This document shows, in pieces, positions 32,241 to 35,368 of a stretch of 64,000 nt of DNA (within the stretch, counting starts at the first letter, position 1; each line of letters starts with the position of its first letter). The stretch comes from Sedimentisphaerales bacterium (lineage in GTDB: Bacteria > Planctomycetota > Phycisphaerae > Sedimentisphaerales > SM23-30). The DNA is taken from contig CAXXFK010000010.1 of the NCBI GenBank assembly GCA_963663965.2, forward strand, positions 64,001 through 128,000, read 5' to 3'. A program made the position numbers and the translations under genes. Below the pieces are notes generated by a model that was not told the DNA's origin, made no database searches, and saw only the letters and a list, made by a program, of their open reading frames with translations.

Positions 32241-32522
32241 TTAATGTTTTAACCGATCCTTAATTTCTTGCTTCTTCTTATCTGACAAGCGGTTAGGTAA
32301 TTTGTCGTCATACAGATCCAGACTGGAAAATTTTTTGAAAATTATCTGTAAGAGGCGAAGTTGCTTTTGGTAATACCGGCAATAGTGACAGATCAGCAGA
32401 TGCCCTTTCAGGGCAATTCGTTCAATTCTGGTGAGAGGTGTCTCTTCCGCGCGCGAAATAATTTCCGCGGACTTATGGCAAGTCATGGTCAGGATAAACC
32501 AGATGTTACGAAACAGTTTCAT
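32241..32522 (-). CDS. Zinc-finger (zf-HC2 / ZAS) anti-sigma factor
   Basis: TC...IS and HLLICHYC (HxxxCxxC); directly downstream of an ECF sigma. Confidence 0.85.
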   Translation of the reverse strand: MKLFRNIWFILTMTCHKSAEIISRAEETPLTRIERIALKGHLLICHYCRYYQKQLRLLQIIFKKFSSLDLYDDKLPNRLSDKKKQEIKDRLKH

Positions 32523-32530
32523 GCCAGTCT

Positions 32531-33112
32531 CTACCTGCTATCGGTTTCAAACCAGTTTATTTCCAGACAACGGCGTAAGTGGATACGGGCTCGATGCAAA
32601 CGTCCCCACAGATTGGCAGAAGAAATATCGAGATTCTCACAGACCTGCTCAGGCGGCAGTTCATCCATCACCCGTAAGACAAAAGCCTGCGCCACCGGTT
32701 CGGTCAGGTTTTTCAGGCAATTCTGCAATACCTGCCAGAAAGATTGATTCTCCAGAATGGCGGCCGGATCGCAGGACCAGTCCGCAGGTTTCTCGATCCA
32801 GTGTCCGGCCTTATCAAAAAAACTCTTAACCCATTCCCCGTCATCGTCCTGCGGGCGATTCCGGGTTGCCTTGCGAAGATAATCGACAATCTTGTGACGC
32901 AGAATGCCTGCCAGCCATACTTTGGGACTGGATTGTCCTTTGAAGGATTCCAGGCCGGCATGGGCGGCCATAAAGGTTTCCTGGACCAGATCTTCCGCAA
33001 TATCATGCCGACGAACACGAGCCATGGCGTAACTGAAGAGCATATCGCCATAATCATCCACCAGTTGCTCGATCGATAATTTTTCATTACCTGGATATTC
33101 CGGAGCAGTCAT
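32531..33112 (-). CDS. ECF sigma-70 factor
   Basis: AEDLVQETF, W..GILRHKIVD, FVLR, LHRAR..LRRCLEINWF. Confidence 0.92.
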   Translation of the reverse strand: MTAPEYPGNEKLSIEQLVDDYGDMLFSYAMARVRRHDIAEDLVQETFMAAHAGLESFKGQSSPKVWLAGILRHKIVDYLRKATRNRPQDDDGEWVKSFFDKAGHWIEKPADWSCDPAAILENQSFWQVLQNCLKNLTEPVAQAFVLRVMDELPPEQVCENLDISSANLWGRLHRARIHLRRCLEINWFETDSR

Positions 33113-33120
33113 AATATTAC

Positions 33121-33149
33121 ATTATATGACCGGAATGCCCACTTGATAA
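33121..33149 (-). promoter_or_regulatory. Sigma70-like promoter of the ECF gene, probably leaderless
   Basis: TTATCA-N17-TATAAT ending 8 nt before the ATG; no SD visible. Confidence 0.5.
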
Positions 33150-33201
33150 GATAATTTTCCAGACAATCGGCCCCGAACCGAACCGTAATTTTTTGCCCAA
33201 T

Positions 33202-33289
33202 AAAAAAAGAGTCGCCGTGTTAGACACGACGACCCTGGATCATGGATCCCTTGTACCGCCTTTTCTTGCCTCCTGACAGCACAGGGCCG
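33202..33289 (-). ncRNA. Putative structured RNA, copy 2 (AGGAGG-loop hairpin, conserved linker, terminator)
   Basis: Homologous to 33329-33410 with pairing-preserving changes; ends in GGGTCGTCGTG-TCTAA-CACGGCGACTC-T7. Confidence 0.6.
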
Positions 33290-33328
33290 TTATATCGTTA
33301 AACTGCCTTGGCAGTTTGTTTTTTAACA

Positions 33329-33410
33329 AGGTCGCCGGTTCTTATAAAACGACAACCCTGAATCATGGATCCCATCCACCGCCAAATTACCTCCTGACGG
33401 TAAAGGGCCG
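33329..33410 (-). ncRNA. Putative structured RNA, copy 1
   Basis: Starts about 5 nt after the response-regulator stop. CCCUUUACCGUC/GGCGGUGGAUGGG stem, AGGAGGUAAUUU loop, AUCCAUGAUUCA linker, terminator-like hairpin. Confidence 0.6.
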
Positions 33411-33415
33411 GTTTA

Positions 33416-33994
33416 TTAATGTATTATGGACATTGCCTCTTCAATACAGTCGATCATGCGTTTCAAATCAAAGGGGCGGGGCAGATAGCCATCAAATCCC
33501 TGCCGTAACAGGGCTTGCGCTTCACCATCGGTTAAAGCGGATGTCATGGCAATGATCCGCGTTCCGCTCAACTCAGGATTTCCACGAATAATCTGGCAGA
33601 TTCGGTTGACATTGATATCATCGATCATCAGATCGATAAAGATCACATGCGGCCGAAATTGTTCCGCGATAATACCGGCATCGAAACCACAGATCGCCGC
33701 CTGCAATTCATAGCGGCCATCTTTCTCCAGTTCCTGCACCAGTGTTTCCACCTGTTCCCGTTTATCGTCCACGATCAATAACCGCACCAACCCGCCATCG
33801 ATCCCGTTTAAGGGCATGCCATGAGCTTTCATAAATCTCACCAGTTGGGATACCGGTATACGGCGATCTTTGCTGCCTGGTATGCGGTACCCCCTGAGTT
33901 GTCCGGTATCGAACCATTTTGATACGGTTCGCGGCGCGACATTGCATAGCTTGGCAACTTGACCGGTGGTTAGTACATCTTTTCGCTTTTCCAT
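33416..33994 (-). CDS. Excisionase-type HTH DNA-binding response regulator (planctomycete-typical)
   Basis: VLTTGQVAKLCNVAPRTVSKWFD.G.LRGYRIPGSKDRRIP, then a receiver domain (LIVDD, FIDLM). Confidence 0.9.
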   Translation of the reverse strand: MEKRKDVLTTGQVAKLCNVAPRTVSKWFDTGQLRGYRIPGSKDRRIPVSQLVRFMKAHGMPLNGIDGGLVRLLIVDDKREQVETLVQELEKDGRYELQAAICGFDAGIIAEQFRPHVIFIDLMIDDINVNRICQIIRGNPELSGTRIIAMTSALTDGEAQALLRQGFDGYLPRPFDLKRMIDCIEEAMSIIH

Positions 33995-34348
33995 GTTTCC
34001 ATCTTACACAAAAAGGAATCTTCTCTTTTTCTCCTTGAGCTTCACCCAGTGTGCAGCGCTCAATTCGATACAGTAATTAGCATTTATTTGTTCGGCCGCT
34101 TATAAGGGCAAGTTTAATATAAAACCTCACAATTAACCGGCAACTGTCAGATATCAGAAAGCGATCAGAATCCACACAGCCGCCATATGGAACAAAATCA
34201 GTGATGATTCCCCTGCCAGGTCCTATTACCCTCACAATCGCTCAACTTTAACAACCATCCCGATTATAAATTAAAAATCAATATTTCTGATTTTTTCGAC
34301 TATTCGATTACTATCCTGCAAATTTGGGCTATTATCGGACGATTCAAT

Positions 34349-34383
34349 AAAAAAACCGTCTTTCTGAATCAGGAAGACGGTTT
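34349..34383 (-). terminator. Intrinsic terminator of fba
   Basis: AAACCGTCTT...AAGACGGTTT stem, with an A-run on the plus strand. Confidence 0.8.
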
Positions 34384-34417
34384 GATTTTAATATCAGGTA
34401 TTTGTCTGGATTATTGG

Positions 34418-35368
34418 TTAACGACAAAGATCGGCTTTGCCAGCGCAACCCAGGACATGCAGCTTGCGTTTAACCATTTCACAAATAGCCGTACGGCCCG
34501 GTCCCAAATAATTGCGAGGATCAAATTCAGCGGGCTTGGTGGAAAATACTTCACGAATCTTCGCAGTCAATGCCAGACGCAGATCGGTATCAATATTGAC
34601 TTTACAAACAGCCATTTTGGCGGCTTTACTGATTGCTTCTTCTGGAACGCCCATCGTATTCGGCATATTTCCGCCGTATTTGTTGATCAGCGCCACAAAT
34701 TCCTGCGGTACGCTGGAAGATCCATGCATCACCAATGGGAATCCAGGCAGGCGTTTGCCAATCTCTTCGATCACATCGAAGGCCAGTTTCGGCTCGGATT
34801 TGAATTTATAGGCGCCGTGGCTGGTTCCGCAAGCCACAGCCAGCGAATCGCAACCTGATCTTTTCACAAATTCTTCCGCCTGATTCGGATCAGTCAGGTG
34901 ATTCATCACATCATCCGCGCTGACACCAACGACATCTTCTTCAATACCGCCTAACTGCCCCAGTTCCGCTTCCACCGTTACGCCACTGGCATGGGCCATA
35001 TCTGCCACTTTACGGGTTTTGGCAATATTTTCTTCAAAAGGATCATGTGACGCGTCAATCATAACCGAAGTGAAGCCATCTTTAACGCACTGTTCACACA
35101 ATTCATAGGTATCGCCATGATCCAGATGCATGGCAATAGGCAGATCGCCACTATCTTCAATGGCACAATCGATCAAAGCGCGCAGATATTTCACATTCGC
35201 GTAGGACCGGGCCCCCTTAGATATCTGCAGAATGAGCGGGGCATTTTCTGACTTACAGGCATCAACGATAGCCTGCATGATTTCCATATTATTCACATTG
35301 AACGCGCCGATGGCAAATCCGCCGTCATAGGCAACCTGAAACATTTTTTTAGTAGATACTAATGGCAT
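34418..35368 (-). CDS. fba: Class II fructose-bisphosphate aldolase
   Basis: GAFNVNN, HLDHG, SVMIDAS, EAELG, GTSHGAYK, MHGSS, KVNIDTD. Start MPLVS. Confidence 0.96.
   Translation of the reverse strand: MPLVSTKKMFQVAYDGGFAIGAFNVNNMEIMQAIVDACKSENAPLILQISKGARSYANVKYLRALIDCAIEDSGDLPIAMHLDHGDTYELCEQCVKDGFTSVMIDASHDPFEENIAKTRKVADMAHASGVTVEAELGQLGGIEEDVVGVSADDVMNHLTDPNQAEEFVKRSGCDSLAVACGTSHGAYKFKSEPKLAFDVIEEIGKRLPGFPLVMHGSSSVPQEFVALINKYGGNMPNTMGVPEEAISKAAKMAVCKVNIDTDLRLALTAKIREVFSTKPAEFDPRNYLGPGRTAICEMVKRKLHVLGCAGKADLCR

Follow-up and report, generated by a model that had tools for sequence, protein, structure and literature searches.

The regulator locus and its tandem RNA units

The window analysed here (64,000 nucleotides of contig CAXXFK010000010.1 from a Sedimentisphaerales bacterium, assembly GCA_963663965.2) carries on its minus strand a gene for an orphan response regulator and, behind it, two related units, each consisting of a long stem followed by a terminator-type hairpin, which lie between the regulator stop codon and the gene for an ECF-type sigma factor (Table 1). 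These units belong to an RNA family that is absent from Rfam and that lies directly after the stop codon of a single regulator combining HTH_17 and REC domains. Two homologous minus-strand units had been placed here by a first-pass annotation, which proposed a conserved structured RNA tied to the regulator 3' end; both proposals are borne out, the latter by family position, fold, and covariation.

Table 1. Features of the locus, in window coordinates; strand (.), no strand assigned.
Feature	Position	Strand	Remarks
Predicted sigma28-like promoter motif of the regulator gene	34089..34117	(-)	TAAA-N16-GCCGAACA; predicted from sequence
Orphan response regulator, 192 aa	33416..33994	(-)	HTH_17 + Response_reg (Pfam PF12728 + PF00072); host transcript of the element
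Copy 1, covariance-model match	33322-33413	(-)	
Copy 1 stem (putative bait)	33367..33409	(-)	GG/CC base pair, AU bulge, CCC/GGG, upper stem, apical loop
Copy 1 invariant GGAGG	33390..33394	(-)	Context CAGGAGGU
Copy 1 terminator-type hairpin	33322..33359	(-)	Weak tail UUGUU; from folding
Small hairpin between copies	33299..33318	(.)	Terminator-like on the plus strand
Copy 2, covariance-model match	33202-33292	(-)	
Copy 2 stem (putative bait)	33244..33288	(-)	Layout as copy 1; core 79% identical to copy 1
Copy 2 invariant GGAGG	33269..33273	(-)	Context CAGGAGGC
Copy 2 intrinsic terminator	33202..33236	(-)	13 pairs + U tract; predicted transcript 3' end
Promoter-like site for ECF gene	33121..33149	(-)	TTATCA-17-TATAAT; downstream of the element, neighbour only
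ECF-type sigma factor gene	32531..33112	(-)	Neighbour of the element in this genome only

Folding energies of the two units are -35.3 and -36.6 kcal/mol, with z-scores against dinucleotide shuffles of -3.3 and -3.6 on the minus strand versus +0.6 and -1.1 on the plus strand. The U tracts are as first described, U7 at copy 2 and a weaker one at copy 1, whose hairpin is absent from the output of the terminator scan; transcription would read through the copy 1 terminator into copy 2. Core identity between the copies, compared with a family mean of 74%, suggests that both have long been kept intact. The genome holds no third copy, the next covariance-model match scoring 18.8 bits (E 0.13). The Rfam relationship that the earlier annotation had allowed for did not materialize: cmscan over 32500-34500 (E up to 5) returned 7 weak matches, none on the element, and none of the CsrB, CsrC, or RsmX/Y/Z models matched it. 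A small peptide encoded within the element was dismissed, since the linker AUG is not conserved.

Fold, covariation, and invariant bases

The consensus comprises, in its 5' part, GG-CYC, the upper stem, N-GGAGG-C, an optional hairpin, and the return strand, and in its 3' part GRG-AU-CC-A, a short linker ending in YCA, and the terminator. Like small RNAs derived from 3' UTRs, the element is a conserved structured tail at the 3' end that closes with an intrinsic terminator. The fold drawn originally missed the basal GG/CC pair beyond the invariant AU bulge as well as an extra, variable hairpin found in most relatives. As had been claimed, stem differences keep pairing: among 23 homologues, 95.7% of cells are paired and 17 of 29 pairs show two-sided change. 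None of 500 shuffles reached the pairing and covariation values of the family fold, and slid registers gave 40-53%. As the 23 sequences are related and were aligned by fitting to a model, this covariation is to be read as strong support rather than as a P value. The competing pairing of GGCCCU with AGGGU, proposed at the same time, shows no two-sided change, is paired in 84.7% of cells, and costs 11.6 and 5.7 kcal/mol when forced upon the two copies. A helix between loop and linker is paired in 92.8% with one two-sided change. The linker itself is specific, YYCARGG preceding 3 and GATCCA preceding 2 of the 378 terminators in this genome.

GGAGG is invariant (23/23). Of the conserved AGGAGG loop start in the first-pass annotation this part therefore stands, while the preceding base varies (U in 19 sequences, A in 3, C in 1) and the second base before GGAGG is always a pyrimidine (U in 15, C in 8). 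The AGGA context occurs in both copies here and in one relative (G023), and is missing from the other 20 of the 23. In the family fold GGAGG lies outside the covarying stems; in folds of single sequences it is partly paired in some members, among them copy 1.

Distribution of the element

A homologue search with a covariance model, as the annotation had suggested, yielded matches in 22 of the 24 other genomes of the family, one match each and one of them degenerate; two copies are found in this genome alone, and every other family genome with the element has a single copy. Orthologues of the regulator (65-72% identity) occur in 22 other genomes of this family, and 20 of these loci have one intact unit between the stop codon and approximately 200 nt downstream, the remaining two having a degenerate unit without GGAGG (G004) and no unit (G019). 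Further regulator homologues have no element behind them (L216 at G000:C13:176720-177295, G000:C33:289766-290924, and L220, where G000 is the genome studied here); one element-less homologue in this genome is 67% identical, and in G005 too a regulator copy lacks the element. The 5' leaders of many family orthologues (L002-L023) contain a GAGAAAACUY-like motif some tens of bases before the start codon.

Among 126 genomes from the other families of the order, the corrected model R2, from which the family and order counts derive, found only two weak matches, both plain terminators. The class-wide search used model R1 only, whose main stem is one column off, and gave weak matches in 41 genomes outside the family; the 27 loci among the matches listed were for the most part plain terminators when judged by eye, and included one tRNA-like sequence and one with GGAGG behind an unrelated gene. 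A pattern scan of 185,579 species genomes returned 88 matches, 17 of which lie beside the regulator, have the full fold, and come from the same lineage (records titled Sedimentisphaerales, Phycisphaerae, Planctomycetota, or Pirellulales). The other 71 were treated as chance, as their loci contain no regulator and, by eye, no terminator unit. A weak model match in family f6 (L134:1501-1617, genome G192), with UGGAGG and a terminator between unrelated genes, is probably not homologous to the element. Sequencing-run listings showed no RNA run containing the element.

Flagellar context

Upstream of the regulator gene lies a motif that resembles the sigma28 consensus; with a loose regular expression a similar one is found upstream of 20 of 23 family orthologues and of 22 of 26 orthologues from family f14, while the expression matched 11 of 40 paralogue controls. 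In this genome, in which both FliA and FlgM are present, motifs of this type also lie in front of flgM and of a weak yjfB-like match, and these predicted promoters suggest that the regulator is co-expressed with late flagellar genes. A single csrA gene lies between fliW and flagellin, and UCA-N-GGAGGA spans the Shine-Dalgarno sequence in all 23 family flagellin leaders. Hfq was not found in this genome, which is 94.6% complete. Across 201 genomes of the class CsrA occurs in 179 and FliW in 117; the presence of CsrA is, at that frequency, uninformative.

The flagellin leaders have further features. All 23 (L031:1840-1900 and others) place an ANGGAG loop motif over the Shine-Dalgarno sequence, and most also have an upstream GGC-ANGAN-GCC hairpin, possibly a non-canonical CsrA site. 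In two genomes of family f8 (G054 and G058; loci L187, L189, L215), the csrA gene and a more distant regulator homologue are arranged tail to tail.

A family-wide candidate C-rich small RNA

Scanning the genome for C-rich loops identified a candidate partner at an orphan locus (G000:C13:110612-110697, minus strand, L467), which has a promoter-like sequence, a UUCUCCUCCUUUG stretch in single-stranded form, and a terminator whose loop is ACCCCUCC. Its two CCUCC stretches are complementary to the GGAGG loop, its stem covaries, and Rfam contains no match to it. The candidate RNA is found in 21 of 24 family genomes and in 0 of 126 others of the order, and the element in 22 of 24 with no real match in the 126, although this agreement in range is partly built in, both covariance models having been trained on this family (f1). 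Some relatives contain up to three copies of the C-rich RNA (L457-L484).

A two-CCUCC pattern extends the comparison beyond the family, occurring in f1 (2/2), f14 (15/27), f12 (19/27), and other genomes of the class (4/144), with controls near zero; GGAGG loops behind the regulator occur in the same three families. The small RNAs of f14 and f12 were detected by the pattern and not by model R3 of the C-rich RNA, so that only shared architecture links them to the f1 RNA as homologues. These loci (L492-L514) share the two-CCUCC layout with a different stem, and reach five copies in G244, with a tandem array of three at G156:C150.

Loops from f14 form 7-10 contiguous pairs with the f14 small RNA as against 5 with the 16S tail, the latter computed with the 16S of this genome as proxy. 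In this genome, copies 1 and 2 each form 7 pairs with the loop region of the small RNA (-12.4 and -12.7 kcal/mol), two bases of which lie in the stem of the small RNA, and they form 7 and 6 pairs, respectively, with the 16S tail. All other family members except G023 form 5 pairs with the C-rich RNA and likewise 5 with 16S. Cofolding of the element with the C-rich RNA gave no conserved extended duplex.

Regulator tails in other families

Orthologues of the regulator in other families are not matched by the element model, yet their tails often have GGA loops at the same position. In f14, 11 of 26 tails (one truncated locus having been dropped) have a terminal hairpin with GGAG(G) in its loop, and 1 of 6 tails in f12 has a GGAGG hairpin loop; by comparison, GGAGG loops occur in 8 of 708 loosely defined hairpins in 396 kb of f14 and f12 genomes. 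Outside f1 and f14, the 200 nt behind the stop codon contain CANGGANG on the sense strand of 17 of 58 loci and on the antisense strand of 1 of 58, and some of these tails form perfect CsrA-type hexaloop hairpins. The paralogue control, imperfect in that the gene mostly continues into an operon, gave 3 of 40 sense and 4 of 40 antisense. Neither tail motif is seen in many families, and the related genomes counted here are not independent.

These tails raise the possibility, which we consider doubtful, of a lineage-specific decoy tail on one sigma28-driven regulator across Planctomycetota, presenting CsrA hexaloops in some families and GGAGG against a class-level anti-Shine-Dalgarno small RNA in others. 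If so, an RNA circuit independent of Hfq would couple late flagellar transcription to the release of blocked ribosome-binding sites.

Candidate functions

The RNA family is real and uncatalogued, and the GGAGG at its tip probably serves as a bait that would pull translation repressors off other messages. In the form that we tentatively favour, the element would be a Shine-Dalgarno decoy, presenting GGAGG on a long stem to the family-wide C-rich small RNA. The decoy idea of the first-pass annotation is supported in that GGAGG is invariant and a candidate partner with CCUCC exists; the constancy of GGAGG, the variability of its flanks, and the missing CsrA adenine together fit pairing with CCUCC. 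A sigma28 (FliA) promoter would drive the regulator message together with the late flagellar genes, and this message, or a 3' fragment of it, would end at the terminator and be protected by the stems. GGAGG would then pair with CCUCC of the small RNA, either titrating it off real ribosome-binding sites or allowing it to act on the regulator message, and duplication combined with a leaky first terminator would place two baits on one transcript in this genome. Against the decoy reading, 20 of the 23 members offer only a 5-bp core that is no better than pairing with 16S; the strict small-RNA pattern in f14 is found in 5 of the 11 genomes that have the loop and in 10 of the 15 that lack it; the sole f12 genome with a GGAGG loop has no strict two-CCUCC match; and G004 and G019 retain the C-rich RNA despite having lost GGAGG. 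Nor does the decoy model explain the invariant GRGAUCCA, with its AU-bulged base, or the linker.

Next in our ranking stands a reading, possible but less so, in which the GGA loop is a CsrA site and titration of a FliW-type CsrA by the regulator message, or by a 3' fragment of it, would help to free flagellin translation. It shares with the small-RNA decoy the idea of a ribosome-binding-site mimic that draws off repressors. The fliW-csrA-flagellin cluster, the GGAGGA motif over the Shine-Dalgarno sequence of every flagellin leader, the sense-strand excess of CANGGANG with its occasional perfect hexaloops, and the presence of FliW in families with such CsrA-type tails all argue for it. CsrA normally needs an adenine before GGA (ANGGA or AGGA). 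The family, however, has A at -2 in 0 of 23 sequences and at -1 in 3 of 23, whereas the flagellin leaders always keep the adenine, and it is likewise missing from 11 of 11 f14 loops. Furthermore, G004 and G019 have lost GGAGG but kept fliW-csrA-flagellin, no co-loss with csrA, fliW, or the C-rich RNA being seen in these two genomes, and several FliW-bearing families have few or no such tails. As given in PMC7652899, the SELEX consensus was RUACARGGAUGU with an ANGGAN hexaloop, short stems were preferred, and the CsrB repeat was CAGGA(U/A/C)G, to which CAGGAGG in both copies here is close; sponges carry many sites, while each unit of the element has one GGA on a 13-14 bp stem. The CsrA sponge proposed by the earlier annotation is accordingly weakened by the single GGA and the mostly missing adenine, and kept in play by the canonical CsrA sites in the tails of other families.

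The remaining explanations seem less probable. An unlikely one is a cis-acting 3'-end element that governs how stable the regulator message is or how it is processed, the bound factor being 30S, a nuclease, some RNA-binding protein, or the regulator itself. Its strict link to one gene, the resemblance of the invariant GG/AU-bulge/CC base and linker to a protein site, and the 7 and 6 pairs of the two copies with the 16S tail would suit such a role, but the f14 flanks do not lengthen 16S pairing (5 bp), the element is missing behind the second regulator copy here and behind one in G005, and no candidate binding protein was identified for it. The element also has the anatomy of a 3'-derived small RNA, and sigma28-dependent UTR-derived small RNAs have precedent in E. 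coli (PMC10578931); a processed RNA might pair with messages, GGAGG opening anti-Shine-Dalgarno hairpins or the linker covering start regions. Nine bases of the copy 1 linker are complementary to the leader of its own flagellin; yet cognate linker-flagellin pairs rank no better than expected (mean rank 10.9 versus 12, 22 pairs), no Hfq was found in this genome, and we regard this reading as improbable. Least probable is a riboswitch or attenuator, tandem in this genome, that controls read-through into the downstream gene. Two alternative pairings could reach the 5' arm of the terminator, one of them the well-paired loop-linker helix with its one two-sided change, and the copy 1 U tract is weak. 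On the other hand, GGCCCU:AGGGU lacks two-sided change and costs 6-12 kcal/mol, no Rfam riboswitch model matches, and a separate promoter-like site for the ECF gene lies downstream of copy 2, albeit one that is weak on its own since 4 such sites (10 of 12 consensus matches) were found versus 2.9 expected. The next gene is convergent in 11 genomes, on the same strand in 9 with mostly different, unrelated genes, and unassignable in 2, orientation being taken from ORF lists with one convergent case, a tRNA-like gene, judged by eye. Given a variable downstream gene, which in 11 of the 20 assignable genomes points the opposite way (convergent), relatives with a single copy, and an ECF gene found there only in this genome, the tandem attenuator for the ECF operon put forward in the first-pass annotation is not supported. 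With 9 nt between the end of its promoter-like site and the ATG, the ECF message may be nearly leaderless.

Relation to known regulatory RNAs

The following comparisons are by features. RosA of Bacillus subtilis and RsaI of Staphylococcus aureus are G-rich sponges for C-rich small RNAs; RosA's G-rich parts bind C-rich RoxS and FsrA, with a RosA-RoxS duplex predicted at approximately 15 pairs (PMC8216469). Like them, the element has an exposed G-rich stretch complementary to a C-rich small RNA that has more than one such region. RosA, however, stands alone as an RNA of approximately 229 nt, has three G-rich regions, and is predicted to form long duplexes, whereas the element is the 3' tail of a gene, with one GGAGG per unit and 5-7 predicted pairs. 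With CsrB/CsrC, RsmX/Y/Z, and flaA it shares GGA in a hairpin loop and a terminator, and the genome has a fliW-csrA-flagellin arrangement as in Campylobacter and Bacillus, the flaA mRNA of Campylobacter being a CsrA antagonist in a FliW organism (PMC7652899, PMC4894983). It differs from CsrB/CsrC and RsmX/Y/Z in having one GGA per unit, usually no preceding A, and a long stable stem, and in being a 3' tail without an Rfam match rather than its own gene (CsrB/RsmX type) or a 5' leader (flaA). As with UhpU, MotR, FliX, and FlgO of E. coli, the RNA would come from the untranslated part of a predicted sigma28 transcript; those RNAs pair with messages in an organism bearing Hfq (PMC10578931), while here no Hfq was found, and a search for a conserved message target of the element found none.

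CsrA is reported to be prevalent in Planctomycetota (PMC13443453). Literature searches, which covered listings and the openings of abstracts, turned up no report of this RNA, nor of RNA antagonists of CsrA or base-pairing small RNAs in planctomycetes. Should the decoy role prove true, regulation by RNA sponges would extend to Planctomycetota, for which these searches turned up no described case, and would be tied there to the flagellar sigma factor. At this locus the bait is defined, a candidate partner is named, and binding can be tested cleanly three ways (small RNA, CsrA, 30S); tails of a related kind are found in further families of the phylum, among which there may be culturable members.

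Other loci with C-rich or G-rich loops were recorded alongside these comparisons. Intergenic hairpins with CCUCC-containing loops also occur in this genome at G000:C29:141184, C6:44977, C32:161826, and C38:82490. Four of five f14 genomes searched contain a conserved small RNA candidate (L446-L449) with a sigma70-like promoter, a long terminator, and the loop AGGAG.
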